A stretch of 64,000 nt of DNA from an uncultured beta proteobacterium (GCA_903869595.1 CAIPZV010000037.1:4600-68599), one strand, 5' to 3'. Shown: positions 26,785 to 41,550, numbered from the stretch's first letter. Numbers and translations are program-made. Notes: generated by a model from the sequence alone, not told the origin.

Positions 26785-27945
26785 ATGGCAGACGACAGCG
26801 GCGATCGCACCGAAGACCCGACCGCGCGGCGCCTCAAGCGTGCGCGCGATGACGGCCAGGTAGCCCGCTCCGCCGAACTACCGGCCGCTGCTGTGATGAT
26901 TTGCAGCGTCCTCATGTTGCTGATGATGGGCGATGTCTGGTTCAAACAATTATCGGTCTATTTCAGCGCCGGCTTTACGTTTGATCGCAAGTTGCTGGAG
27001 TCCCCTATGCTACTGCCTGCAGCCTTTGGCAGCCAGTTGCTACACGGCCTGCTTTTGGTATTGCCGCTGATGCTTGTCACCATGGTGGTGGCCATACTGG
27101 CGTCAGGTGCAACTGGCGGCTTTCTGTTTTCACTCAAGTCCATACTGCCCGATTTTTCCAAACTCAATCCCATCTCAGGGATGAAAAAAATAGTCGGCGC
27201 CGATGCCGTCGTACAGCTCGTCAAATCCATTTTAAAAATGGTCTTGATCGGCACCGTGCTGGTCAACATGCTGAACCACCATTTTGTCGAGCTGATGTCC
27301 CTGGGCGCCATGGCCTTGGAGCCGGCCCTGGCCAAAGCCGGTAGCTTAATTTCTGAGTCGGTGATGTGGCTCACGCTGTGCTTGGTGCTGATTGCCATGA
27401 TCGATGTGCCTTACCAAAAATACAGCTTCATGAAGCGTATGCGCATGACCAAGCAAGAGATCAAAGACGAGCACAAAGACATGGAAGGCCGTCCCGAGGT
27501 CAAAGCACAAATCCGCCGCCGCCAGCGCGAAGTGTCCACCGCCCGCATGATGCAAAAAGTCAAAGAGGCCGACGTCATCATCACCAACCCGGAGCACTTT
27601 GCAGTCGCCCTGTCCTACGACCCCACGTCCGACGGCGCCCCGCTATTGCTGGCCAAAGGCGTGGACCACACCGCCGCGCGCATCCGCGAAGAAGGTAAGG
27701 CTCACAGCATCGAAATTTTTGCCGCCCCCGAACTCGCCCGTGCGCTGTACTTCACCACCGAACTAGACCAGCCCATCCCCGAGGCCCTGTATTTTGCGGT
27801 AGCCCAGGTGATTGCCTATGTGTTCAGCCTGGCCCAGGTGCAGCCGGGCGTGGACCCCATGGCACGTCCCGCACCCAAACTTCCAGCGTCCATGCTGTTT
27901 GACACCAACGGCAAGCCTTTGCACCCTGAGGCAGTACCCGCATGA
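26785..27945 (+). CDS. flhB: export switch protein FlhB
   Basis: RTEDPTARRLKRARDDGQ, MTKQEIKDEHKDMEGRPEVK and the NPEH autocleavage motif. Confidence 0.96.
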   Translation: MADDSGDRTEDPTARRLKRARDDGQVARSAELPAAAVMICSVLMLLMMGDVWFKQLSVYFSAGFTFDRKLLESPMLLPAAFGSQLLHGLLLVLPLMLVTMVVAILASGATGGFLFSLKSILPDFSKLNPISGMKKIVGADAVVQLVKSILKMVLIGTVLVNMLNHHFVELMSLGAMALEPALAKAGSLISESVMWLTLCLVLIAMIDVPYQKYSFMKRMRMTKQEIKDEHKDMEGRPEVKAQIRRRQREVSTARMMQKVKEADVIITNPEHFAVALSYDPTSDGAPLLLAKGVDHTAARIREEGKAHSIEIFAAPELARALYFTTELDQPIPEALYFAVAQVIAYVFSLAQVQPGVDPMARPAPKLPASMLFDTNGKPLHPEAVPA

Positions 27946-29459
27946 CCGATCTTCAATTTCCTGGCGACGACAGCATTGCGGGCGTGCAGCCGCTGCTTTT
28001 CCGCGTTGCCGACCGCATGCGCCTAGAGGGCTATGTGTCGGCCCTGGTGCAAGACAATATGAGTTTGTCCCTGGTCAGCGGCTTTGACGCCATCTTGGAT
28101 CACTACGGCAAATTGCTGGTCGCCCGCCTGCGCGAAGCCGCCCCGCACATCGGCCTGGAAGTGTGCTTTCCAGCGAGTGCCGACGCGCTGATCACCCGCT
28201 TTAACGAGGTGCTGCAGGACTACTCCATCGAAGACGCGATGGGCGCCAAATTCCACAACGCCCCGCCCAAAATCTGGATCGTGCACGACGCCGGTGCGCT
28301 GCCCGACAACGAAATTCAGTTACTGGCACGCTTGGTCCAGCATTTCCCGGGCGCCAATATCCGCGTGGTCATGCTGTTTAACGCGTCCAGCCAAAAACAA
28401 AAACTGCTGGCCGCTTTTGGCCGACGCATTCTGAGCTGGGAAATCGAACCGCCCACGCCTGAACAATCCGAGGTCTTGCTGGAGCAGGCGCGCGCGCAAG
28501 GCCGCGAAGGCGTAGTCGGTGCATTGCTGCGCCAAATTAGTCCCCAGAAAAAACCGCTGCTGCATCCCATGGCCATGCCTGAGTTGGTGGCTGAACCACC
28601 GCCTGTCACACCACCTCTTGAATCTAAATCAGCCTCTGCAGCCAGCGACGAGCCCCGTGAAACACCGCCTGCAAAGCCTTCTCGCAAAATATGGCTCTGG
28701 GCGACTCTGGCAGCTGTGTTGCTTTTGGCCTGCGGCTTTGGCGTGGCTATGGTCTATGGCGTCATCCCCACCGGCGACAATGCGGTGCAGGAACTGCGCG
28801 ATTTGCTGCGTGGCGCTAGTGCCCACGCCCCACCTGCGGCAACTGCAGCCAGCAGTAGCGCGCCCGCTGCGGTGGCTTCCACGCCGCCGCCCTCTGGGCC
28901 CGATCGCAACGCCGCCGCAGCCGTAGTGTCCGCCGCACCTGTCGCGGCCACCGCGCCAATCATCGCCAGTCCCACACCCAAAGCGGCCGAAGAGGTGGAA
29001 ACCATTGTTCCCTCTTCCAGCGTCCGGCCTAAGGCAGCGGCGCCTACGCCAGAGCCCACACCGGTGGCCAAAGAACTAAAAGAGACACCCAAGGCACCCG
29101 ACGAGGCCGCAATTTCACAGAACCAGGCGGGACAAGCCTGGGTGCGTCAGATGCCCGCCGGCACCTTCCTGGTGCAGCACACCATAGTGCCCAGCTACGC
29201 CGAGGCCAATACCTGGCTGCAAGCCCACCCCAATTTGCGCCGTGCGCGCATCGTGGCCAACTACCTGCCCAACCTATCTAGCTTGCAGTACTCCGTGGTT
29301 TCCGGGCCCTTTAGTTCGCTGGCGGAGGCCAGTGCGTATGCGGATAGCCCGGGCGTGCCCAAGGACCCGCAGATCCGATCAGCACGATTTATGAAGGAAC
29401 AGTTCTCTCAAGAGAACATGGTGAGCACAGGACAAAGGCGCACGGAGAACAAGCGATGA
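27942..29459 (+). CDS. hypothetical DamX-like protein (degenerate AAA_22-like domain, TM, SPOR-like C-terminus)
   Basis: Walker-B-like IWIVHDAGAL without a Walker A; TM at about aa 250-270; Pro/Ala linker; C-terminal FLVQH...YSVVSGPFSSLAEA resembles SPOR. ATGA overlap with flhB. Confidence 0.6.
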   Translation: MTDLQFPGDDSIAGVQPLLFRVADRMRLEGYVSALVQDNMSLSLVSGFDAILDHYGKLLVARLREAAPHIGLEVCFPASADALITRFNEVLQDYSIEDAMGAKFHNAPPKIWIVHDAGALPDNEIQLLARLVQHFPGANIRVVMLFNASSQKQKLLAAFGRRILSWEIEPPTPEQSEVLLEQARAQGREGVVGALLRQISPQKKPLLHPMAMPELVAEPPPVTPPLESKSASAASDEPRETPPAKPSRKIWLWATLAAVLLLACGFGVAMVYGVIPTGDNAVQELRDLLRGASAHAPPAATAASSSAPAAVASTPPPSGPDRNAAAAVVSAAPVAATAPIIASPTPKAAEEVETIVPSSSVRPKAAAPTPEPTPVAKELKETPKAPDEAAISQNQAGQAWVRQMPAGTFLVQHTIVPSYAEANTWLQAHPNLRRARIVANYLPNLSSLQYSVVSGPFSSLAEASAYADSPGVPKDPQIRSARFMKEQFSQENMVSTGQRRTENKR

Positions 29460-29905
29460 AGGAACCAGAATTTTTTCCCAGCCATGCTCCCCACCATGTG
29501 GAGATGCCCGAGGGCAGCAATGTTGCCAAGAGTAAATCCGCGCATGTGGGCGAAGACATCCGCCGCGTTGCGAAAGACGAAAGCATTGAAGACGAAGCGT
29601 TGGAGATAGCGCCGGAGAACACTATTCTTTTGCAAACCGCCAGCGCTGCGACCAGCAATATCGTCAAGCTACCACCTCAGCAGAAGAAAGAACTCAAGAC
29701 CGTCGCGATTAAAACTACCGCGCTCGACGCTAAAGCAGGCACTGCATTGGGCCTTAGCGGCGGTGAGGACGTTTTGGAAGCGGAATTTGAAACCGAAGAA
29801 ATGGTCGAAATGGATTTCCCCGCCCGCGTGATTCAACTCAAAATTGAAAACGACGTGATTCGTGAAGAACTCAAAGCGCTCGATGCGCTCATGAAGGGCG
29901 GCTAA
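29456..29905 (+). CDS. hypothetical acidic protein
   Basis: ATGA overlap with the upstream gene; C-terminal helical MDFPARVIQLKIENDVIREEL; no family recognised. Confidence 0.65.
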   Translation: MKEPEFFPSHAPHHVEMPEGSNVAKSKSAHVGEDIRRVAKDESIEDEALEIAPENTILLQTASAATSNIVKLPPQQKKELKTVAIKTTALDAKAGTALGLSGGEDVLEAEFETEEMVEMDFPARVIQLKIENDVIREELKALDALMKGG

Positions 29906-29939
29906 ACCCCAGCCCCCGCGCCACCAAGAGGTAAGTAAT

Positions 29940-30962
29940 ATGGCCGATACCCCCAACACCCTGACACCCGACGAAGCATCCGCAATCGAGGCTATCGGCG
30001 GCGCCCCGCTGGCAGCCGCCAGCGATACCGCAGCGCACGATGAGACGACTGAGCCCGTACTGCATGAAGCATCTGGCGATGCGCAATTGCATCAGGCAGG
30101 CGAGCACGGCAACGAGGGCGGTGCGCTGCATAGCGGTGCACACGACGACCACCACGAGGCTGAGCATGCGGCGCAGGATACCCAGGACGCCGAAATGGCG
30201 GAAATGAAGTCCACCTTGCTGGACTCGGCCGAGTTGGCCAATCGGGCCGCAGGCATGGCTGCCAAAGCGGCGGGCAATATGCATGGCGCATCCACCCAGC
30301 TTATCGAAAGCTATTCGGCACAAAAGATGTACCTCATCATTGTGCTGGCCGTGTTCGGCCTGCTGATGGTGCTGGCGATGAGCGTATTTGCGTTTATGTC
30401 CTTTCGGCTGCAGCAGCGTGTGGCTCAGGCCGACGCCATGCTGATCGCAGTCGGCAAGAGGGTGATCGCGATGGACGAATCGATAGAGCTTTTTACCGGC
30501 CACGGTGAAGCCCTGCGCGAAGTGGCCAGCAAACAAGACGCCATCATCAGCGCGCAAACCAAAATCGAACTGCGCCTGGACGAAGTCATGCGCGGCGTGC
30601 AAGCCGCTGCCGACTCGATTGCCAAACCAGCCCATGACAAAGACAAGGATAAAGCGCCCGATGTCGCCAAGCTCATCAAGGACTTGGATGGCAAGCTCGC
30701 GGCCCAGGCCAGTGCTATTAGCAACCTGAGCAGCCAAGTGCGATCGGCAGGCACCCCGGCGCCGGCCCGCCCGGATCCGGCTGCGGTACGCAAAGAAGCC
30801 GAAGCCATCGTGCGCCAGCTCAAAGCCGCAGAAGCCAGCGTGAAACCGGCAACACCGGCCACCACAGCGCCCGCTGCGCCCAAAGCACCTGAAAAACCGG
30901 TGGAAAAAGTGGTGCAGTACCCGCGCATCCAAAACACCGGCAAGACGCCGGATGGCCAGTAA
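29940..30962 (+). CDS. hypothetical bitopic membrane protein with coiled coils
   Basis: Acidic/His-rich N-terminus, TM YLIIVLAVFGLLMVLAMSVFAFMSF, then a heptad-rich region. Confidence 0.7.
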   Translation: MADTPNTLTPDEASAIEAIGGAPLAAASDTAAHDETTEPVLHEASGDAQLHQAGEHGNEGGALHSGAHDDHHEAEHAAQDTQDAEMAEMKSTLLDSAELANRAAGMAAKAAGNMHGASTQLIESYSAQKMYLIIVLAVFGLLMVLAMSVFAFMSFRLQQRVAQADAMLIAVGKRVIAMDESIELFTGHGEALREVASKQDAIISAQTKIELRLDEVMRGVQAAADSIAKPAHDKDKDKAPDVAKLIKDLDGKLAAQASAISNLSSQVRSAGTPAPARPDPAAVRKEAEAIVRQLKAAEASVKPATPATTAPAAPKAPEKPVEKVVQYPRIQNTGKTPDGQ

Positions 30963-30993
30963 GCCTGGCGACCGCAAGGACTGCCGGGGCGCT

Positions 30994-32133
30994 TTAAACG
31001 CCTTCGCGCAGTCCGAATTTCTGAATTTTTTCTATCAGCGTGGTGCGCTGCACGTTCAGAATGCGTGCCGTCTGCGACACATTACCATTGGTACGGCTCA
31101 GGGCCTGAGCGATCAGATCGCGCTCGATTTCGGCGAGGCGGTGCTTCAGTGACAAACCTTCGGGCGGCAGCACCGGTAAGGCCTGGGACATAAAGGTCAT
31201 TTGCTCGACCTGATTAGGTTCGTCTTCGACCTCGCCCTCATCCTCATCCGATAATTCGTCAAACAAACCGCCTGAAGTGGGGCCATCAGCAAAAGCGCCC
31301 GAAGCCAAAGCAGGGTCTATCTGGGGCAAGTCCCCCGAGTCGGCCAGCGCTTTGTAAGCCAGCATGCCCTTGGGTAAAAGGCTCTTGGAAAAATCTTTCA
31401 ATTCCAGGCACTGCCCAGCAAACAAGGTGCTGAACCGGTCGATCAAATTAGATAATTCCCGCACGTTGCCAGGCCACTGGTAGGACTGCATGGCATAAGT
31501 GAAGTCCGGAGCGAAGGTGATGGGTTTTTCACCTGGGCCCGCGTGGTGCTTAGCAAAAAATTGCAGCAGCAAGGGCACATCGTTGGCCCGCTCGCGCAAG
31601 GGTGGCGTGTTAAGCGGCAGCACGTTCAGACGGTAATACAAGTCTTCGCGAAAACGCCCGGCGGCGATCTCGGCCTCTAGGTCGCGGTGGGTAGCAGCAA
31701 TCACGCGCACGTCAATCGGAATGGGCTTGGTACCGCCCACCGGGTCTATCACCCGCTCTTGCAGCACGCGAAGCAATTTGACTTGCAGCTCCAGCGGCAA
31801 GTCGCCAATTTCGTCTAAAAAAATAGAGCCGTTGTGGGCCAGCTCAAAACGCCCCACCCGGTCGGTCACGGCGCCGGTAAAAGCGCCCTTGCGGTGGCCA
31901 AACAGCTCGCTTTCAATCAAATCTTTGGGGATGGCCGCGCAATTAATCGGCACAAAATTGGCATTGGCCCGGTGCGACAGGTCGTGTAGCGAGCGCGCCA
32001 CAATTTCCTTGCCGGTGCCGCTCTCGCCGGTGATCAAGACGGTCGAGCTCGATGCCGCCACGACGGGCAAAAGGTCCCGGATGGCCCGAATGGCATCACT
32101 TTCACCAATAAAATTGAGAGCGTTTCGCGACAT
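30994..32133 (-). CDS. fleQ: sigma54-dependent activator, FleQ-like, lacking an N-terminal regulatory domain
   Basis: [28 protein letters not shown] and a C-terminal Fis HTH; starts directly at the AAA+ domain. Gene name assigned from flagellar context. Confidence 0.8.
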
Positions 32134-32323: not shown

Positions 32324-32339
32324 TGGTACGCAAACTGCA
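32324..32339 (+). promoter_or_regulatory. putative sigma54 promoter upstream of the Sel1/J-domain module
   Basis: TGGTACGCAAACTGCA with GG-N10-GC spacing, 71 nt upstream of the GTG start. Confidence 0.6.
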
Positions 32340-32410
32340 TAATCAAGATGAACACGAGGCCGCCGGCTTGTCCAAGCCCGGACCTGGTGCCCAACCCTTA
32401 GACCACAGGC

Positions 32411-33742
32411 GTGACCGACCTCGCTCCCGATTTACAACTTGCCGCCCTCACCAATCTGGGCCTGATGTACGCCCAAGGCCATGGGGTGGAGCAGGATTTC
32501 GTGCGCGCGCTGGACTGCTACCGCCAGGCCGCCGAACATGGCGTGCCGCAGGCCCAATCGAATCTGGCGGTAATGTATGCCCATGGCCAGGGCGTGCAAC
32601 AAGATTTTGCGCAGGCCCACAAGTGGTACCAGGCTGCCGCCGAACAAGGCCTGCCCTATGCCCAAACCAATCTGGCGGTGATGTACGCCAACGGCCAGGG
32701 CGCGGCGCGGGACTACCAGCAAGCCCTCAAGTGGTACCAAGCAGCAGCCGAGCAAGGCGACACCAGCGCCCAGCGCGGCCTGGGCGTGATGTATGCCAAC
32801 GGTCAGGGCGTACCGCAGGATTTCGGGCTGGCCTTGCAGTGCTATCAAAGTGGCGCCGCTGCGGGCGACGCCGCTGCCCAGTACGGCATGGGCGTGATGT
32901 ACGCCAACGGACACGGCGTAGCGCAAGACTTAAAGCAAGCTTGCCACTGGTACCAGCTGGCCGCTGCCCAAAACCACTTGCACGCTTTGTTCAATTTGGG
33001 CTTTTTGTATTCCAATGGCCAGGGCATGGCGGCGGACTTGGGCAAAGCCCTGGATTGCTATGAGCGCGCCGCCGCGCTGGGCGATGCCGCCGCGCAGTAC
33101 AACCTCGGCGTGCTTTACAGCAGCGGCCAAGGCACTGACCTGAATACCGAAAAAGCGCTGCATTGGTACCAAAAAGCCGCCGAACAAGGCGATGCCGCAG
33201 CGCAATTCAACCTGGGCCTGATGTACGCCACCGGCCAGGGCGTGGCGCAAGACGATGCGGCGGCACTGGCCTGGTACCAATTGGCCGCCGACCAGGGCGA
33301 CGCGCAGGCCCAGTACAACCTGGGCGTGATGATTGCCAATGGCCAAGGAACCTTGGCCAGCCGCACCGTGGCCATGCAATGGCTGCAACTTGCCGCCGAC
33401 CAGGGCGATGCGCTGGCCTGGTACAACTTAGGCGCCCTCTACCAGGAAGGCGCGGACCAGGCACCGGATTACCAACGCGCCTTACAGTGCTACCGCAAAG
33501 CGGCCCAGGGCGGCCAGGCCGATGCCCAAGCCGCACTCGGTTGGTTGTACGCCAACGGCATGGGCGTGCTGCAAGACTATGTGCGCGCCCATATGTGGTT
33601 TAACGTGGGCGCGGTCAGCGGCCATGCGCAAGCGGCTAGCGGACGCGAGTTTGTGGCCCAGCAAATGGCACCGATGCAAATCGCGCAAGCGCAAGACCTG
33701 GCGCGTAAATGCATACAGGAACAATTTGCTGGCTTTGACTAG
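32411..33742 (+). CDS. Sel1-like repeat protein (11 repeats), no signal peptide
   Basis: 36-aa units AQxNLGxMYANGQGVxQDxxxAxxWYxxAAxQG. Confidence 0.9.
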   Translation: MTDLAPDLQLAALTNLGLMYAQGHGVEQDFVRALDCYRQAAEHGVPQAQSNLAVMYAHGQGVQQDFAQAHKWYQAAAEQGLPYAQTNLAVMYANGQGAARDYQQALKWYQAAAEQGDTSAQRGLGVMYANGQGVPQDFGLALQCYQSGAAAGDAAAQYGMGVMYANGHGVAQDLKQACHWYQLAAAQNHLHALFNLGFLYSNGQGMAADLGKALDCYERAAALGDAAAQYNLGVLYSSGQGTDLNTEKALHWYQKAAEQGDAAAQFNLGLMYATGQGVAQDDAAALAWYQLAADQGDAQAQYNLGVMIANGQGTLASRTVAMQWLQLAADQGDALAWYNLGALYQEGADQAPDYQRALQCYRKAAQGGQADAQAALGWLYANGMGVLQDYVRAHMWFNVGAVSGHAQAASGREFVAQQMAPMQIAQAQDLARKCIQEQFAGFD

Positions 33743-33789: not shown

Positions 33790-35073
33790 ATGCTCTCTTC
33801 CTCCTCGGACTCCGACTACCAGGCCTACTTTGCCGATGCCGCCAGCGCCGTGCAATCGGTGCTGGCCGCTGCGCGCCAGCAAGTGGTGTGCGCACTGGCG
33901 CGCGACTGCAGCCGCCATTGGTTTGAGCTGCTGCTTCAGGTGGCGCGACGCGGCGTGGCGCTGCGTCTGTTGGTACCGGACACCGCGGCCAATCGCCAGT
34001 CCGCCATCGCCTGGGAACGCATCAGTGCCTTAGGTGCCGAACTGGTTTGGCTGGACAGCAGCGCGCCGATTTTGCAAACCCCGGTGTGCGTGGTCGATGG
34101 GCATACGGTACTTAGCGGCGCCATTACCGAATTGAGCACCGTGGCACGCGAAGACTTTGCCGGCGTGGTGCGGCAAAGCGACTTGGGTCTGGCAGCACGC
34201 TGCCTGCAAGGGCTGGACGCGATGGCGCCACATGTCGCAGCCCTAGCCGAAGCCGAAACAATCGCGCAAACCGCCAACGGCCATGCTTTGGTCCTCAGCG
34301 CCGACCTGCAAGCCCGCACCGCCGCTTGGCAAAGCGAACTCTTGCAATGCCAGAGCCTGGCGCTGCAAGCCGAGTTAGATGAAATGCAGCGCAGCATGCA
34401 AAGTTTTGAAAGGCAGCAGGACGCGGCCATTGGCGATTTGCTACGCGAGTTTTTGGATCTCAAGCGCCAGTACCTGGCCCAGATGCACGCGCGCTTTGGT
34501 GGTGCAGAGCGCGGAGACCAAGCGCGCGAGGCCGATGAAAGTTTTAGCCGCTACACCGAAAGCCACCCGGACGACGAGCACCTAGATGCACCGCCCGAAC
34601 TAGACATCCAAGCGCAACAAGAACTCAAACGCCTCTACCGCAAACTAGCCATGCAATGCCACCCGGACCGCGTGGACTCGGCCCAAGACAAGCAACATGC
34701 ACAGGCTTTGTTCCAGCGTCTGCAACGCAGTTACCAAGCCAGCGATATGCGCGGCCTGCAAAAGCTGCAAGCCCAGTTAGAACTAGGCCAGGACGCCAGT
34801 AGCGCGCGCGCACCAGGCGCCGCCTCAGCGACCCGCCGCGCCCCGGCGCAATGGGCGATGGAGCTGAGCGCGCTGCAAAGTACCCTGGCGCAGCAACAGG
34901 CGCAGCGCCTCGAGATTTTGCAAAGCGCCACCTGGCGCACGCTGGTAAGCCAAAGTCGTTGGGACTTGTGGTTTGCGCAGCAGGCCAAGCACCTGGAAAC
35001 CGAAGTGGCGCGCTACCGCGAAGCGCTGCAAGAGGCGCCAGCCCAAGACCCTGCGCAGATTCAGCAAGGCTAA
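33790..35073 (+). CDS. PLD-like (degenerate) domain, coiled coil and J-domain protein
   Basis: J-domain core LKRLYRKLAMQCHPDRV...FQRLQRSY with HPD at about 34660; the N-terminal ~150 aa follow a PLD-like pattern but lack HxK. Confidence 0.75.
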   Translation: MLSSSSDSDYQAYFADAASAVQSVLAAARQQVVCALARDCSRHWFELLLQVARRGVALRLLVPDTAANRQSAIAWERISALGAELVWLDSSAPILQTPVCVVDGHTVLSGAITELSTVAREDFAGVVRQSDLGLAARCLQGLDAMAPHVAALAEAETIAQTANGHALVLSADLQARTAAWQSELLQCQSLALQAELDEMQRSMQSFERQQDAAIGDLLREFLDLKRQYLAQMHARFGGAERGDQAREADESFSRYTESHPDDEHLDAPPELDIQAQQELKRLYRKLAMQCHPDRVDSAQDKQHAQALFQRLQRSYQASDMRGLQKLQAQLELGQDASSARAPGAASATRRAPAQWAMELSALQSTLAQQQAQRLEILQSATWRTLVSQSRWDLWFAQQAKHLETEVARYREALQEAPAQDPAQIQQG

Positions 35074-35075
35074 GC

Positions 35076-36548
35076 ATGGGGCAGTTACAAATTTCATCCG
35101 CCGCAGGCGCACTGACACCCTTAGAGCGCAAGCGCTTGGATATGGTGGCCCACACCCTGGCCGGCTTGCACGAAACCCAGGCCCTGCAATTTTTCCGCGA
35201 CCGGCCCGCGCTCTTGGCGGCTTGCCTGCAACAGCATTACCCGCTGGACCATGCACTGATGGAGACCCTGGGCCAACGCAAAGACTGGCGCATGCTCAGC
35301 GCCAGCCGCGTGTTGCAATGGACCGACGAACTGATAGAGGCGTATACCGAAGACTGGGACTGGGAGCTGCTCAGCAAAAACCCGGCCCTGCCCTGGTCCG
35401 GCGCCTTGCTGGAGCGCTATACCGAACGCTGGAACTGGCAGTCTTTGTGTACCAACCCCGGTCTGCCCTGGAGCCAAGCGCTGCTGGAGCAATTTGTGTA
35501 TCGCTGGAACTGGGCGGTGCTCAGCCGCAACGCCGAACTGCCCTGGACGGCCGCCTTTATCGAAGCCAATGCCCACCGCTGGGACTGGACCGCTCTGAGC
35601 TGGAACACCGGCCTGCCCTGGACCGTGGGCTTGCTAGAAAACTACCGGGAGCGCTGGGACTGGACCGGCCTGAGCGCCAACACCTCGCTGCCCGGTGACG
35701 CGGCGCTGGTCGAGCGCTTTGCCCAGCACTGGCAGTGGACTTGGCTGAGCGCCAACCCCAGCTTGCGCTGGAGCGAAGCACTTATCACGCGCTATGCCGC
35801 GCAATGGGACTGGGAGGCCTTAAGTAGCCAAGCGCAATTGCCCTGGAGCCCGGAGCTGATCGCGCGCCATGCCGAACTGTGGGACTGGAGCGCTTTAAGC
35901 GCCAACCCGCACCTACCTTGGACCCCGGAGCTATTGCACGCCTGGCCCGCACGCTGGGATAGCGCCGCCCTCTGGCGCAACCCGGCGTTGCCCTGGCGCG
36001 AACTGCTGGTTACATGGAGCGAGTCGGCCTGGCTGCAAGCGCCGCAACCACGGGCCCCTCCCGCACCCCTGCAAGCCTGGGACTGGGACGGCTTGAGCGA
36101 AAACCCGGCGCTGCCTTGGAGTGCGGCGCTGCTAGAAGCCTTGCAAGACCAATGTGACTGGGACCGCCTAAGCTGGAACCCGGGCCTGCCCTGGGACGGC
36201 GATTTACTCGCGCAATTCACCCGCGACTGGGACTGGAGCGGCCCCAGCAGCAGCGCCACCCTGCCCTGGAGCGGCGCGCTGCTCGCGCAACATGCCGACG
36301 ATTGGGACTGGGAACGCCTGAGCGCCAACGCGGCTATTGCCTGGTCTGAGGACCTGCTGGCGCCTTACGCCGATCGGCTGAACTGGGCCACCCTGAGCGC
36401 GCAAGCCACCCTGCCCTGGAGCACCGCTTTCTACCTGCGCTTTGACGCGCACTGGTTTCCCAGCCTGGTGGCGCAGCACCAAGGGCTCAATATCCACCAC
36501 TTGAGCAGCGACGACATCACGACACTGTTGCAGGAAAAGCCGTCATAA
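35076..36548 (+). CDS. Trp-rich 25-aa tandem repeat protein (15 units)
   Basis: Units WDWxxLSxNxxLPWxxxLLxxxxxx; ATG 2 nt after the upstream stop. Confidence 0.85.
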   Translation: MGQLQISSAAGALTPLERKRLDMVAHTLAGLHETQALQFFRDRPALLAACLQQHYPLDHALMETLGQRKDWRMLSASRVLQWTDELIEAYTEDWDWELLSKNPALPWSGALLERYTERWNWQSLCTNPGLPWSQALLEQFVYRWNWAVLSRNAELPWTAAFIEANAHRWDWTALSWNTGLPWTVGLLENYRERWDWTGLSANTSLPGDAALVERFAQHWQWTWLSANPSLRWSEALITRYAAQWDWEALSSQAQLPWSPELIARHAELWDWSALSANPHLPWTPELLHAWPARWDSAALWRNPALPWRELLVTWSESAWLQAPQPRAPPAPLQAWDWDGLSENPALPWSAALLEALQDQCDWDRLSWNPGLPWDGDLLAQFTRDWDWSGPSSSATLPWSGALLAQHADDWDWERLSANAAIAWSEDLLAPYADRLNWATLSAQATLPWSTAFYLRFDAHWFPSLVAQHQGLNIHHLSSDDITTLLQEKPS

Positions 36549-36704: not shown

Positions 36705-36920
36705 ATGACCGAGGTGAAACACCAGCCCAGCCAAGCCCAGCATCTGGAGGCGGCAGCCCATCCCGCGCGCGGCCCGTCCACCCAATGGCTGGCTGAATCC
36801 ACGCTGGTGGTTTCGCGCCAGGCGCATGTGCCGCACGGGCAAAAACTCTATGCCGTGGAGCACCAGGCCCACCCAGTACAGCACCAGGCCCTTCCCATGC
36901 TGAGCCAACACCAGGAATGA
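36705..36920 (+). CDS. small His/Gln-rich hypothetical protein (71 aa)
   Basis: GAGGA RBS before ATG; downstream of the sigma54 motif; stop overlaps the next ATG. Confidence 0.5.
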   Translation: MTEVKHQPSQAQHLEAAAHPARGPSTQWLAESTLVVSRQAHVPHGQKLYAVEHQAHPVQHQALPMLSQHQE

Positions 36921-36985
36921 GTTTGCCCCGCGCCTTCCCCCAAGCCTGTGCGCCGCTAGCGCATGCGGTGGGAGTGCGCGCATGA
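36917..36985 (+). CDS. possible 22-aa coupling peptide MSLPRAFPQACAPLAHAVGVRA
   Basis: ATGA overlaps at both ends (36917-36920 and 36982-36985); below the ORF-track length cutoff. Confidence 0.3.
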   Translation: MSLPRAFPQACAPLAHAVGVRA

Positions 36986-39609
36986 AAAATCTGCTCGCCG
37001 ACGCCGACGCGGCCTACCGCCGGGGCGACTTTGCCAATGCCTTGCGCATTTCGCGGCCTCTGGCCTCGCTGGAATACGCCGCCGCGCAAAACAACCTGGG
37101 CTTTATGTATGCCAACGGCCAGGGCGTGGCACAGGACTATGCGGAAGCGCTGAAGTGGTACCGCCTGGCCGCCGCGCAAGACTATGCGCCGGCGCAATAC
37201 AACCTGGGCTATATGTACGCCAACGGACAGGGCGTGGAACAAGACCACGCCCAAGCGCTGCAGTGGTACCAATTGGCCGCGGCACAAGGGCTGCCGGATG
37301 TGCAAACCAATCTGGCTTTTATGTATGCCAATGGCCAGGGCGTGGAACGTGATGCAGCGCAAGCGGCTTACTGGTTCGAGCGCGCCGCCGTGCAAGGCCA
37401 CGCCACCGCCCAATTCAATTTGGCCAGCATGCTGCTGCAAGGTGAAGGCATAGCCAAAGATACGGTGGGCGCACGCAAATGGCTGGAGTCTGCCGCCGTG
37501 CAAGGCCACAGTTATGCGCAATTCCAATTAGGCCTCTTGCTGGCACAAGGCAAAGACGTGGAGCCCGATGCCGAACTGGCGGCCAAGTGGTACCACAAAG
37601 CCGCCGACCAGGGCGATGCCCCGGCGCAATACAACCTGGGTCTGATGTACGCGCACGGCCAGGGCATTGCCCCGGACTTGTCGCTGGCCATGTCCTATTT
37701 CACGCTGGCCGCCGAACAAGGCCATGGCGATGCGCATTACAACCTGGCCGTGCTTTTAGCCCGGGTGGACGGCGAAGGCCGCGACGCGATTGATGGCACT
37801 GGCGCTGACGATGACGAAGACGCCCCCGGCCCCATGGCGCAAGCCCTGGTGCACTACCGCACCGCCGCCGCTTTAGGCCATGCGCAAGCGCAATACAACT
37901 TGGGCACGCTCAGTGCCAACGGCTATGGCGTGGCGCAAGACTATGCCGAGGCTTTGCAGTGGTACCAAATGGCCGCTGAGCGCGGCATGGCGCAGGCGCA
38001 GTTTCAGGTCGGGTTGATGTACCACATCGGCCAGGGCGTGACGCAAAACAGCACCCAGGCGCGCCAGTGGATGCACCTGGCCGCTGACCAGGGCCATGCC
38101 ATGGCGCAATGCAATTTGGGCGCGATGTACAGCCAAGGCCAGGGCGTGAGCCAAGACTTCACCTTAGCGCGCCAGTGGCTGCAACTCGCTGCCGACCAGG
38201 GCGACACCTTGGCGCAACATAACCTAGGCCTATTGCTCGCCCAAGGCAAAGGCGGCGCGCAAGACGCGGCCAAGGCCTATGACTATTTCGCGCTGGCGGC
38301 CCAGCAAGGCCATGGACCAGCCCAATTCAACCAAGGCGTGGCGCTGGCCCAAGGCCATGGCGTGGCGCAAGACCTGCAAGCGGCACAAGCCTGCTGGCAA
38401 CACGCCGCCGACCAGGGCATGAGCGAAGCCATGTTCAACCTGGCCGTGCTGCGCGCCAGCCAAGACAATACTGATCCGCAGGTGCGCGCGTTCTACCAAG
38501 CCAGCGCGGACTTGGAAAACGCCGCCGCTCTGCACAACCTGGGCGTGATGTACGCCACCGGCAGCGGCACGGAGCAAGACGAAGCACAGGCCTTGCAGTA
38601 TTACCGCGAGGCCGCACGGCGCGGCGACGTAGCCGCGCAATACGCAGCTGCAGTCTTGCTGGCTGAGGGCCCGCAAGAACTGTGCGACGCGACGGCGGCA
38701 TTGGCCTATTTGGAACTGGCCGCAGCCCAAGGGCATCCGGCGGCGCAAGAGCGTCTGAACCTTCAACAATCAAACCAAAGCGCCAGCACTGCCGACTATG
38801 CGCGCCTGCTAGACAACTACCGCCTAGCGAGCGAACACGGCGACGCCTTGGCCGACTTCAATTTGGGCCTGCTTTACGCAGGTGGCCTGGGCTGCGAGGC
38901 CGATGCGGCGCTGGCGCAGCAGCACTATCTGCGCGCCGCCCAAGCGGGCATGGCGCAGGCGCAAAACAATTTTGCTATTGCCTTGCTACAGGCCGCCGAT
39001 ACCGGTGCGCAAGCCGATGTGAATGCAGAACAAGCAGGCCAATGGCTGCGCGAGGCCGCGGCCCAAAACTACCCGCTCGCCTGCTTTAACTTGGCGCTGT
39101 ACCAAAGCCGCAGCGGCGACGCGGCGCAGGTGCCAGAACTGCTGCGCCAAGCTGCCGAACAGGGCGTGGGCAAAGCCCAATTTAATTTGGGCTGGAATTT
39201 GGCATTTGGCGATAACGCCATTGCCAGCTTTACCCAAGCCCTGCCCTGGTTGCATAAAGCCGCCGAGCAAGACGATACCGACGCGCTCTACACCCTGGGG
39301 CGCATGCAGTTTTTCGGGCAAGGTTTGCCCGCCGATGCAACGCAAGCGCTGGCCTGGTACCAGCGCGCTGCCGCATTGGGCGATGGCGCAGCGCAATTTA
39401 ATTTGGGCTCCATGTACGCCAACGCCCAGGGCACGGCGCAAGACTATGCCCAAGCCTTGCAGTGGTACCGTGCAGCGGCCGGCCAGGCACCGGCACCCGC
39501 CCCAGCGGCACAACTGAACGCACCACCGGTCACCGCGCTGCCGACACGCGCCACGGAACCAGAGACTGTGGCCACTTCCGACAGCGATGCCATGAGGCGG
39601 GCCGCGTGA
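36982..39609 (+). CDS. large Sel1-like repeat protein (~22 repeats), no signal peptide
   Basis: Tandem 36-aa Sel1 units over the whole length; acidic insert GTGADDDEDAP in repeat 7. Confidence 0.9.
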   Translation: MKNLLADADAAYRRGDFANALRISRPLASLEYAAAQNNLGFMYANGQGVAQDYAEALKWYRLAAAQDYAPAQYNLGYMYANGQGVEQDHAQALQWYQLAAAQGLPDVQTNLAFMYANGQGVERDAAQAAYWFERAAVQGHATAQFNLASMLLQGEGIAKDTVGARKWLESAAVQGHSYAQFQLGLLLAQGKDVEPDAELAAKWYHKAADQGDAPAQYNLGLMYAHGQGIAPDLSLAMSYFTLAAEQGHGDAHYNLAVLLARVDGEGRDAIDGTGADDDEDAPGPMAQALVHYRTAAALGHAQAQYNLGTLSANGYGVAQDYAEALQWYQMAAERGMAQAQFQVGLMYHIGQGVTQNSTQARQWMHLAADQGHAMAQCNLGAMYSQGQGVSQDFTLARQWLQLAADQGDTLAQHNLGLLLAQGKGGAQDAAKAYDYFALAAQQGHGPAQFNQGVALAQGHGVAQDLQAAQACWQHAADQGMSEAMFNLAVLRASQDNTDPQVRAFYQASADLENAAALHNLGVMYATGSGTEQDEAQALQYYREAARRGDVAAQYAAAVLLAEGPQELCDATAALAYLELAAAQGHPAAQERLNLQQSNQSASTADYARLLDNYRLASEHGDALADFNLGLLYAGGLGCEADAALAQQHYLRAAQAGMAQAQNNFAIALLQAADTGAQADVNAEQAGQWLREAAAQNYPLACFNLALYQSRSGDAAQVPELLRQAAEQGVGKAQFNLGWNLAFGDNAIASFTQALPWLHKAAEQDDTDALYTLGRMQFFGQGLPADATQALAWYQRAAALGDGAAQFNLGSMYANAQGTAQDYAQALQWYRAAAGQAPAPAPAAQLNAPPVTALPTRATEPETVATSDSDAMRRAA

Positions 39610-39682: not shown

Positions 39683-39710
39683 ATGGAAGGACCATCTACA
39701 AGGATTGAGT

Positions 39711-40271
39711 ATGCAAGTTACTAAATTTATCTCCATCGCCCTGACCGCCATCGTGCTAAGTGCCTGCCAAGTCGCGCCTTTGCAAAATTTGATGGGCAAT
39801 GTCGGTCTAAACCCTGAAGCTGCCGCTGGCAATGGCGCGCAAGACAAAACCGCCAGCGAGCGCCCGGCCATGCTCAAAGTGCCCAGTGAGTTGCTGGTAC
39901 CCAATCTGCCCCTGGTGGAAAAGCGTGAAAGCCTGACCGCTACCGGCTACGCCGTCATCAGTGTTCAAAATAGCAAAACGCCGGCACAGCAGCGCCTGAT
40001 GGCGATCCGCGCGGCCAAGCTCGACGCTTATCGCTCGCTGGCCGAACAGGTCTATGGCCTGCGCTTGGACGCTACTGCCACCGTGGCTGACATGGTGGTG
40101 CAAATCGACACCTTTCGCAGCAAGGTGGAAGGCGTGATTTATGGCGCGACCTTGGTGAGCATCACGCCCAGCGGCGACGATACGTATGAGACCACCCTGA
40201 CACTGGACAAAAGCACGGTGCAGGACTTGCGCATGCTGTACCTGACGCAGCTCACCGCGAAAAGCCGTTAA
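39711..40271 (+). CDS. flgP: FlgP/LPP20-like flagellar lipoprotein
   Basis: Lipobox LSAC; QRLMAIRAAKLDAYRSLAEQVYGLRL motif typical of FlgP. Confidence 0.8.
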   Translation: MQVTKFISIALTAIVLSACQVAPLQNLMGNVGLNPEAAAGNGAQDKTASERPAMLKVPSELLVPNLPLVEKRESLTATGYAVISVQNSKTPAQQRLMAIRAAKLDAYRSLAEQVYGLRLDATATVADMVVQIDTFRSKVEGVIYGATLVSITPSGDDTYETTLTLDKSTVQDLRMLYLTQLTAKSR

Positions 40272-40297
40272 TCCATAAAAAATTTAGCTACTCCACC

Positions 40298-41497
40298 ATG
40301 CGCCGCCTTCCCGCCCTGTTGATGACGCTGCTGCTGGCCGCCAGCGGCGCGGGTGTCTGGGCGCAAAACCTGAGCATGGATGAAAAGCTGGCGGCCATTC
40401 GCAAAAGCCTGGTCGAGACTGCGCTGGAAGGGCCGACCAAAGTCACTGCCACGCAATGGATTGATGCGCAGGGTGTGTTGCGTGAAAGCAGCAGCTTTCG
40501 CTCCGGCGTGGAAGTGCGCGGTGTGCGCGTAGTGGGCTACACCACCGACAGCGAAGGCGAAGCGAGCGCCACATTGCAGTTGCAGGAACTCTCGGGCAAG
40601 GGCAACGCCAAAGGCATGGGTGATGCAAAGAAGGCTGAGCCCGCGTGCAAACCCGCAAGCCCTGGCCGCTTGCAGCACTTAATGGGGATGCAATGGAATG
40701 TCAGCGGTCGCTTTTCGAGTGAAGAGCACAACCTGTTAGAGGAGTTGCGCGCGAATTGGCTGGGTCAATTGCGCACAACCGGCGCCACCACAGCGCTTTG
40801 GAACATTACCCCCAAGCCCCGCAACGAAGGGCGCAGCGGCTACGAACAAGCTTTGCTGGGTTCAGGCTCGGATGACCTGCCCTGGCTATTGGACCTGACA
40901 GTTGTCGCAGTTCCGAGATCGCAAGAAGCCAACACCGGATGGACCAATGCCAGCGATCGCGCGCCCATGCTGGCTGAAGAAAGCGCTCGCGCCTCGCCAC
41001 GCATCAACTGGGCCTTCAATATGCCGACGATGGTACGCGTCGAGGTGCAAATGCGCCTCATCGCCCGCAACCAAACCAAGCCCGTCTTGGTCCTTAACAC
41101 GCCCCTGACTTTGATCGCGCAGGAAGGCAACTGGGGTATCACCCAGCTCAGCAACAGTTCGCGCACACAAGCGCTGCAATTGGCAGAAAACAATGCCTTG
41201 GAGCTGTATAAAACCATGGTGTGCCAAACCGTGGTCGGCGAAGTCACGCAAGCGTTGGGCAAGCAATTTCGGATCAACCTGGGCACCGCTGCCGGGGTGC
41301 GCGTAGGGGATACCTGGGTACTGGCTGATGCGAGCAGGCTGCCCCAGCGTGCACTCGAGCCGGGCAACGCGGGGTTGACTGTAATGGCCAAGGTTCAGTA
41401 CGTCACCGAGCACTACGCGCAACTGACACCGACTGCTGGACCGGCGCAAAACGTGCAAACACGTTGGGCCGCCTGGTCGACCGAGGAAGCGCGCTAA
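40298..41497 (+). CDS. flgT: FlgT-like periplasmic flagellar assembly protein
   Basis: Signal peptide; C-terminal FRINLGTAAGVRVGD motif resembling FlgT_C; adjacent to flgP. Confidence 0.65.
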   Translation: MRRLPALLMTLLLAASGAGVWAQNLSMDEKLAAIRKSLVETALEGPTKVTATQWIDAQGVLRESSSFRSGVEVRGVRVVGYTTDSEGEASATLQLQELSGKGNAKGMGDAKKAEPACKPASPGRLQHLMGMQWNVSGRFSSEEHNLLEELRANWLGQLRTTGATTALWNITPKPRNEGRSGYEQALLGSGSDDLPWLLDLTVVAVPRSQEANTGWTNASDRAPMLAEESARASPRINWAFNMPTMVRVEVQMRLIARNQTKPVLVLNTPLTLIAQEGNWGITQLSNSSRTQALQLAENNALELYKTMVCQTVVGEVTQALGKQFRINLGTAAGVRVGDTWVLADASRLPQRALEPGNAGLTVMAKVQYVTEHYAQLTPTAGPAQNVQTRWAAWSTEEAR

Positions 41498-41550
41498 GCC
41501 CCTGGGGCCTTCGTGCTAAGCTTTGCGCCGATTTGCGAATCGCCCCTACG

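Follow-up and report, generated by a model that had tools for sequence, protein, structure and literature searches.

The stretch of DNA that we analysed (the window; 64,000 nucleotides from an uncultured beta proteobacterium, GCA_903869595.1 CAIPZV010000037.1:4600-68599) carries, at positions 35076–36548 on the plus strand, a gene for a protein made of tandem tryptophan-rich repeats, here called the WDW protein. It is a three-tryptophan, 25-residue branch of the tryptophan-repeat superfamily, which has a name and is uncharacterised. We propose, at a probability of about 40%, that, in a specialised J-protein/DnaK module with a link to the flagellum, the WDW protein is the partner that binds the target. 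This reading starts from direct observations on the repeats, the fold prediction, family relationships, the coupling of the WDW gene to a J-domain gene, the fusion of the two in other taxa and synteny.

The WDW protein, its fold and its family

The WDW gene encodes 490 residues followed by a stop codon, and tryptophan accounts for 48 of the 490 residues (9.8%). Fourteen canonical units begin at residues 94, 119, 144, 169, 194, 219, 244, 269, 294, 335, 360, 385, 410 and 435, in a register of exactly 25 residues within residues 94–294 and 335–435. They follow the pattern W-[DNQ]-W-x-x-L-S-x-N-x-x-L-P-W-[ST]-x-x-L-[LIV], and one degenerate unit at residue 69 brings the total to 15. The 15 units share the consensus WDWxxLSxNxxLPWSxALL, the longer unit consensus is WDWxxLSxNxxLPWSxxLIxxY, the family consensus ends in LIERYxDR, and mean pairwise identity among the units is 41%. 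A hidden Markov model (HMM) built from the units found 15 domains in the protein at 523 bits, compared with 9.5 bits for the best of 1000 composition-preserving shuffles, which bears out the 15 tryptophan-rich repeats of 25 residues described in the initial annotation of this DNA.

Units 1–10, of 25 residues each (residues 69–318; positions 35280–36029), and units 11–15 (residues 335–459; 36078–36452) are separated by a lineage-specific proline-rich insert, WLQAPQPRAPPAPLQA (residues 319–334; 36030–36077). The initial annotation had located this insert inside unit 10; its actual place is between units 10 and 11. Only the nearest relatives share it, and the orthologues L004–L006 and L010 have no counterpart; in orthologues about 48–58% identical to the WDW protein, the 25-residue register runs unbroken through this point. 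The array is bounded by an N-terminal helical cap (residues 1–68; 35076–35279) with the motif F..R.P.....L..HYPL and by a C-terminal helical cap (residues 460–490; 36453–36545) with L.S.DI..LL, corresponding to ..RQDIIELM in relatives.

Orthologues were found at 39–92% identity, and a scan with the single protein returned only Rhodoferax and Comamonadaceae MAGs (metagenome-assembled genomes). The ratio of non-synonymous to synonymous substitution rates (dN/dS) against six orthologues was 0.13–0.16 (about 0.15). The WDW gene is thus real and under purifying selection, and the dN/dS values led us to reject a non-coding or artefactual open reading frame (ORF). An in-frame ATG at 34851 was also rejected as the start codon, as the orthologues begin with MGQLQIS, in agreement with a start at 35076. 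The gene is single-copy in its bacterial genome. Its product is acidic (isoelectric point (pI) 4.8, net charge −26) and has no signal peptide, hydrophobic leader or transmembrane segment (maximum Kyte–Doolittle 19-residue mean, 0.48); the initial annotation had likewise read it as lacking a signal peptide.

AlphaFold2, run with 35 sequences, predicted a confident solenoid (predicted local distance difference test score (pLDDT) 86.4, predicted template modelling score 0.78). In the model, a helical N-cap (residues 15–68, with helices at 15–41, 44–54 and 59–68) precedes repeats with two helices of 5–6 residues per unit (W3–x8 and x16–x21), and a helical C-cap closes the array; the proline-rich insert has a pLDDT of 55–65. 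On the basis of this model, we propose that the WDW protein is a soluble, acidic, cytoplasmic alpha-solenoid in which each unit consists of two short helices that pack on three tryptophans. The positions conserved in the family would then be structural, with helix N-caps at D2 and S15, turns at N9 and P13, and a core of W1, W3, L6, L12, W14, L18, I19 and Y22. These positions have the lowest entropy among orthologues (0.06–0.44, except for positions 19 and 22, at 0.74 and 0.85). The most variable unit positions are 10, 11, 16, 17, 20, 21, 24 and 25 (entropy about 1.0–1.5 among orthologues); together with position 4, they could form a binding surface. As judged from the alignments, such a conservation pattern is what solenoids whose binding surface varies usually show. 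Foldseek returned no significant fold match to the model in the PDB (best E value 0.9, TM-score below 0.21), with armadillo, HEAT and PUF structures appearing only at E values of at least 0.9, and sequence and profile searches with the WDW protein gave no PDB match either.

The WDW protein matched no Pfam-A, NCBIfam or PADLOC model, and an idealised consensus matched none even at E≤10. Models of ankyrin, LRR, TPR, Sel1, HEAT, ARM and WD40 repeats gave no Pfam match, the sole match being a spurious, sub-threshold one to Sigma_1s. The exclusion of ankyrin, LRR, TPR and WD40 repeats in the initial annotation therefore holds, and the search for a characterised Pfam family that would account for the repeat found none. 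As a side observation, the reovirus Sigma_1s model (PF02454) exceeds its 21-bit gathering cut-off on other WDW repeats, scoring 23.1 bits for a consensus array and 30.6 bits for the family member P0056, and it is present in the precomputed annotations of P0026 and P0029; it is a likely source of false positives in automatic annotation.

Family members were abundant: phmmer over 1.84 billion representatives at 50% identity retrieved at least 2,842 proteins at E≤1e-3, 420 of them at E≤1e-30, with a spacing of 25 residues predominating. Viral relatives emerged from both structure and sequence comparison. Foldseek against predicted viral structures (BFVD) gave 43 matches at E<1e-3. They include entomopoxvirus members of the 'tryptophan repeat gene family' (MSV205, E=2.8e-13; MSV027, E=1.6e-10; AMV029, E=1.9e-8; and MSV029), gp558–563 of Bacillus phage G (gp563, E=6.3e-10) and proteins of Marseillevirus, Megaviridae, Pithovirus and Orpheovirus, with E values for named members spanning 3e-17 to 1e-7. 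PHROG 3532, of unknown function, matches the WDW protein at E=5.8e-15. In tblastn searches we found Listeria phage LPJP1 (E=1e-13), phage G gp559 (E=6e-6) and a 'tryptophan repeat gene family protein' of jumbo phage vB_BpuM-BpSp (E=8e-5), which has a tandem array of six such genes (gp053–058).

The phage unit is 23 residues long and has one tryptophan (xNWxxISxxQxLSExFIEKYxDK); a two-residue 'PW' insertion sets the 25-residue bacterial unit apart from it. Alignment of bacterial and phage double units with hhalign gave a probability of 98.1% (E=1.3e-13). A variant repeat, IDWxxLSxNPNAIxLLExNxDK (P0052), occurs on contigs of giant-virus MAGs. These results agree with the initial annotation, which suggested that similar repeats occur in giant viruses. 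Its suggestion of an undescribed solenoid family stands in part: a solenoid is predicted and the family lacks an assigned function, but the family is already named, as the hhalign result and PHROG 3532 show. In the literature on the viral 'tryptophan repeat gene family' and on tryptophan-rich repeat solenoids, we found genome-annotation mentions only, where the name serves as a label of function unknown. As the viral family has neither a known function nor a solved structure, its name is mechanistically uninformative.

A J-domain partner within a flagellar gene block

The gene immediately upstream (33790–35073, plus strand) encodes a protein that we call PLD-J. It combines a degenerate, single-HKD phospholipase D (PLD) domain (residues ~10–145), a coiled-coil helix (170–258), a J-domain (275–316) and a conserved C-terminal helical domain. 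Its TAA stop codon occupies 35071–35073 and the ATG of the WDW gene lies at 35076, a gap of 2 nucleotides, in line with the tight coupling to a J-domain gene reported in the initial annotation. In distant homologues, in which PLD-J is 38–46% identical, the two genes overlap by an ATGA.

The J-domain matches PF00226 at E=3.7e-7 (30.6 bits, cut-off 27.8) with an intact HPD motif, and CHPDR is near-invariant, occurring in 24 of 25 aligned PLD-J homologues. The PLDc_2 match is weak (E=8e-4). In the AlphaFold2 model of PLD-J (pLDDT 78.9), an alpha/beta N-domain is followed by a ~67-residue helix, the J-domain and another helical domain. Foldseek matched the N-domain to NucT, Nuc and Zucchini, which are nucleases with a single HKD motif, and to the pseudo-PLD FAM83 (E values of 5e-6 to 1e-4). 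The HKD position reads QTPVCVVD, with HxK replaced by QTP here and by HTS in most relatives. Because the alignment indicates that the His and Lys of HxK are lost, we consider the PLD domain of PLD-J not to be catalytic.

PLD-J is homologous over its full length to the Chromatiaceae proteins P0049 and P0050, which continue past the J-protein part into an N-cap, WDW units (three of them canonical) and a C-cap. In both contexts examined, the fusion gene is followed by a gene for a separate WDW protein of 449–518 residues whose caps are as in the window's own protein. Together, the full-length homology and the downstream WDW gene define a conserved core of [pseudo-PLD, coiled coil and J-domain] plus [WDW protein]. 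That the window's WDW protein is the split-off C terminus of a fusion was rejected, since in Chromatiaceae a separate WDW gene still follows the fusion gene. One relative limits how general the pairing is: the partner upstream of P0023, a Rhodocyclales homologue, is unrelated to PLD-J, so the PLD-J/WDW pairing is not universal.

The two genes lie in a block of the flagellar gene cluster (26785–32133 and 39700–41500). On the left the block is bordered by a divergent gene for a sigma-54 activator (30994–32133, minus strand) and on the right, from ~39.7 kb, by flgP and flgT; all block genes are on the plus strand. The first encodes a Sel1-repeat protein of 443 residues (Sel1A; 32411–33742; Pfam Sel1 E=1.2e-98) and the last one of 875 residues (Sel1B; 36982–39609; Pfam Sel1 E=2.7e-131). 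Neither has a hydrophobic leader at its N terminus, as read from the translations. Between the WDW and Sel1B genes, a His/Gln-rich ORF of 71 residues, MTEVKHQPSQAQHLEAAAH, with the stretch HQAHPVQH (36705–36920), is 49–62% identical to ORFs that match it in length and position on two metagenome contigs (L045 and L046). As judged by this comparison, it is probably the fifth gene of the block, and its product is possibly a metal-binding or disordered peptide.

The order Sel1A/PLD-J/WDW/71-residue ORF/Sel1B, between the sigma-54 activator gene and flgP-flgT, was kept in every case examined, namely seven loci from six relatives' genomes (WDW identity 39–87%) and the two metagenome contigs. On these contigs PLD-J is 38–46% identical to that of the window, and the WDW protein is 50% identical in L045; fliMNOPQR-flhB lie upstream, and flgN, flgM and flgA downstream. 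Among relatives, the WDW protein and FlhB rank alike in divergence, consistent with vertical co-inheritance. The block is present beside the sigma-54 activator gene in G020, a genome 75% complete in which flgT and flhB were not detected. In one relative's genome, G005, the flagellar region, with the whole block, was present in two complete copies (G005:C2 and G005:C32; L013 and L014), with WDW proteins 55–58% identical to that of the window; they represent either paralogous clusters or a mixed MAG (3% contamination).

Two flagellar types exist in the genus. Of 25 genus genomes, with that of the window included, 11 have the FlgT-bearing type, whose FlhB shares 69% identity or more with the FlhB of the window, and 7 of these 11 carry the WDW gene; G020 is an eighth genome with this gene. 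This type (FlgP/FlgT and a receiver-less sigma-54 activator) was seen in 0 of 16 other families of the order. This distribution suggests horizontal acquisition of the whole flagellar cluster. As for the block itself, the match between WDW and FlhB divergence is most simply read as an ancestral block that was lost once.

Upstream of the Sel1A gene, a sigma-54-like −24/−12 element, TGGTACGCAAACTGCA (32324–32339, plus strand), retains only its TGCATAAT part in distant relatives. The TGCATAAT/GGCATAAT box (window positions 32324–32345; L011–L016 and L045) is kept across all relatives.

From the coupling of the two genes, the Rosetta-stone fusion in Chromatiaceae, a direct HSP70–WDW fusion described below, the intact HPD motif and the loss of PLD catalysis, the WDW protein would be the specificity subunit of a dedicated J-protein. 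We infer physical binding between the WDW protein and PLD-J, recruitment of DnaK and a flagellar client. In the mechanism that we envisage, the WDW solenoid would act as a protein-binding scaffold that recognises a target for the adjacent J-domain protein, and the pair of pseudo-PLD J-protein and WDW protein would bring the housekeeping Hsp70, DnaK, to a specific client. With the two cytoplasmic Sel1 scaffolds and the 71-residue His-rich peptide, the pair would form a fixed accessory block of the FlgP/FlgT-type cluster in Rhodoferax-type Burkholderiales. The long-lived position in a flagellar cluster, alongside leaderless Sel1 scaffolds, suggests a flagellar client, most likely a component of flagellar assembly or regulation.

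Several observations weigh against a J-protein module with a flagellar client. G007 and G022 lack the block, with flgP placed directly next to the activator gene, so this flagellar type can do without it. The WDW gene is missing from G008 as well; because of these three genomes, we regard the block as an accessory part of the flagellar cluster. The full sigma-54-type sequence TGGTAC-N5-CTGCA is found in the three closest genomes only, and its GG-N10-GC element is conserved only in the two nearest relatives. The PLD-J and WDW pair of Chromatiaceae is non-flagellar and lies on a conjugative element, and partners with a J-domain or Hsp70 are a small minority of the family's architectures, among which kinases are commonest.

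A portable repeat and rival readings

Pfam scans identified a kinase fused to the WDW array in 9 of 58 scanned members, and in P0030 in addition. Other fused domains were TPR, ankyrin, UvrD, PIF1, DarT, HRDC, DprA, RNase T, PHP, HNH, SMI1/KNR4, a dynamin-like GTPase and PLD-like domains; in P0048, the PLD domain is intact (HxK(x)4D...GSxN). P0009 is the direct HSP70–WDW fusion. The N-cap and C-cap motifs recur irrespective of the fusion partner, and F..R.P.....L..HYPL is found also in the consensus of the 58 family members and in the Chromatiaceae partners. As one array is joined to many unrelated catalytic domains, it behaves as a portable binding module, and the family profile suggests a portable recognition module, often in conflict-type proteins.

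Two further contexts were observed in passing. In L032 (5998–10256), the P0009 gene overlaps an upstream gene for a dynamin-like GTPase by 4 nucleotides, and a second dynamin-like gene lies nearby, past IS200-type transposase fragments; the locus may represent an unnamed Hsp70/dynamin module. In L034 (4810–13087), the stand-alone WDW protein P0044 is encoded in an operon behind a PF13941 'MutL' family protein, together with three proteins without Pfam matches and a HEAT-like protein of 775 residues.

A conflict or defence cassette is the first alternative. Here, the WDW array would sense an invader protein, the J-protein with host Hsp70, or in relatives the fused DarT, HNH, PLD, kinase or helicase domains, would respond, and the flagellar location would be incidental. 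Many fusion partners are of immune or toxin type (DarT, HNH, intact PLD, UvrD, PIF1, Ser/Thr kinases, SMI1/KNR4 and dynamin-like GTPases), and the same repeat forms multigene families in large viruses. Mobile settings recur as well. P0023 lies in a prophage-like island, and the P0049 fusion and WDW pair of Thiorhodococcus mannitoliphagus (L024; JAAIJR010000025.1) sits on the conjugative element, between TraI/TraG-type and TraU/TraN genes, in the vicinity of an OLD-TOPRIM ATPase and UvrD pair (Gabija-like), a PemK/Phd toxin–antitoxin pair and a minimal nucleotidyltransferase. The cluster of P0049 at 90% identity covers four Chromatiaceae genera. Distribution is very patchy: none of 400 genomes drawn evenly from the phylum had the WDW repeat (E≤1e-6). 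By contrast, no PADLOC model matches the WDW protein, its neighbours give only a weak DrmC match (E=0.011) and a repeat-driven PtuA match, and the sole enzyme-like domain of the block lacks catalytic residues. The block has also held one position in the flagellar cluster while its proteins diverged to 38–50% identity, unlike the usual turnover of defence islands, and a dN/dS of 0.15 indicates no overall diversifying selection. On balance we doubt that the locus is a defence cassette, and we treat a defence sensor as a serious rival because this flagellar type also exists without the block and a homologous pair resides on a mobile element.

An action on nucleic acids is improbable. The acidic solenoid would in this case be a DNA mimic or a regulator of DNA-processing enzymes that docks on the nuclease fold of its partner. 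The DNA-acting fusion partners (HRDC, UvrD, PIF1, DprA, RNase T, HNH, PHP, DarT and PLD nuclease), the matches of the PLD-J N-domain to Nuc, NucT and Zucchini and the acidity of the arrays (repeat part of the WDW protein, P0001, pI 4.5 and net charge −24; family median pI 5.0) are consistent with such a role. However, the same acidity rules out direct DNA binding, and direct nucleic-acid binding by the array was rejected on this ground. Fusions to kinases, HSP70, GTPases and SMI1 do not agree with this role, mimicry has no specific support, and the flagellar context is left unexplained.

Very unlikely, finally, is an exposed groove in which the tryptophans bind a small ligand, glycan or peptide, the aromatic binding groove of the initial annotation: three tryptophans per unit are unusual and no solved structure excludes their exposure, but W1, W3 and W14 are among the least variable positions in orthologues (entropy 0.12–0.23 versus 1.1–1.5 at variable positions), and they are conserved across family members with unrelated partners, whichever domain is fused, so they look like core rather than ligand-site residues. 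The 23-residue phage relatives, moreover, lack two of the three tryptophans and still match in fold; the tryptophans are thus dispensable for the properties shared by the family and look structural.

Wider significance and known systems

The repeat is common in sequence space, with at least 2,842 clusters at 50% identity, yet it has no Pfam model, solved structure or tested function. The locus described here is a tractable entry point: the gene is single-copy, its J-domain partner is defined, a Rosetta-stone fusion occurs elsewhere, and its position within the flagellar cluster is fixed. Natural 'empty-site' relatives are available for comparison. If the target of the solenoid were found, it would point to a function for viral gene families and for the repeat regions of large DarT, kinase and nuclease proteins. 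A J-protein module of the kind proposed could also be a new way to direct Hsp70 to a bacterial organelle. In a broader picture that we offer only tentatively, the tryptophan-repeat superfamily would be a distinct class of alpha-solenoids, an evolvable recognition module in toxin and immune effectors, Hsp70/J-protein modules and viral multigene families, which was domesticated together with a pseudo-nuclease J-protein as an accessory regulator or assembly factor of the horizontally acquired FlgP/FlgT-type flagellum of Rhodoferax.

Among known repeats, LRV (PF01816) is similar in forming a solenoid from very short (24–25 residues), all-helical repeats, and one viral Foldseek match of the WDW protein is annotated 'Leucine rich repeat variant'. 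The Azotobacter vinelandii structure 1LRV represents this family. Unlike LRV proteins, the WDW protein has no Pfam LRV match at E≤10 and no fold match in the PDB. For the N-domain of PLD-J, a parallel is the FAM83 DUF1669 pseudo-PLD, a protein-docking domain. Both have a PLD fold without catalytic residues, and Foldseek matched the PLD-J N-domain to FAM83 structures (5qhm and 5lzk). FAM83 is eukaryotic and lacks a J-domain, and the likeness is at the level of the fold only.

Immune proteins that combine a repeat sensor with variable effectors offer a second comparison. DSR2 is one such protein, with an alpha-solenoid C-terminal sensor (PMC11850899). Across the WDW family, one array likewise occurs with many alternative enzymatic domains, whereas the locus in the window has no active effector domain and no PADLOC match.

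The precedent for a J-domain regulator in flagellation is SflA of Vibrio alginolyticus, which combines a J-domain with a domain of TPR/Sel1-like repeats (SLR; PMC7226244). SflA spans the membrane as one protein, with its SLR domain in the periplasm and its J-domain in the cytoplasm; its gene is not part of a flagellar cluster, and its J-domain, with an unknown partner, has been proposed to control flagellar initiation (PMC7226244). By analogy, the block could resemble SflA in combining a J-domain with scaffolds of the Sel1/TPR type and in being genetically linked to the formation of a polar flagellum. The SflA architecture, a single transmembrane protein with a periplasmic SLR and a cytoplasmic J-domain, does not occur among the block proteins, which are separate and cytoplasmic and include tryptophan repeats and a PLD fold that SflA lacks.

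The tryptophan repeat gene family is the system to which the WDW protein belongs. Both consist of tandem, short, tryptophan-anchored helical repeats, xxWxxLSxxQxLSExFIEKYxDR in viruses versus WDWxxLSxNxxLPWSxxLIERYxDR here, and hallmarks of the family were found, namely tandem units of 23–25 residues, a conserved tryptophan, LS..FIEKY.D[KR], and similarity to named members in sequence or profile and in fold. The differences lie in the unit, with 25 residues and three tryptophans rather than 23 residues and one, and in the setting: the viral genes occur in a multigene context, whereas the WDW gene is a single-copy, chromosomal bacterial gene in a flagellar cluster, paired with the gene for a J-domain protein.

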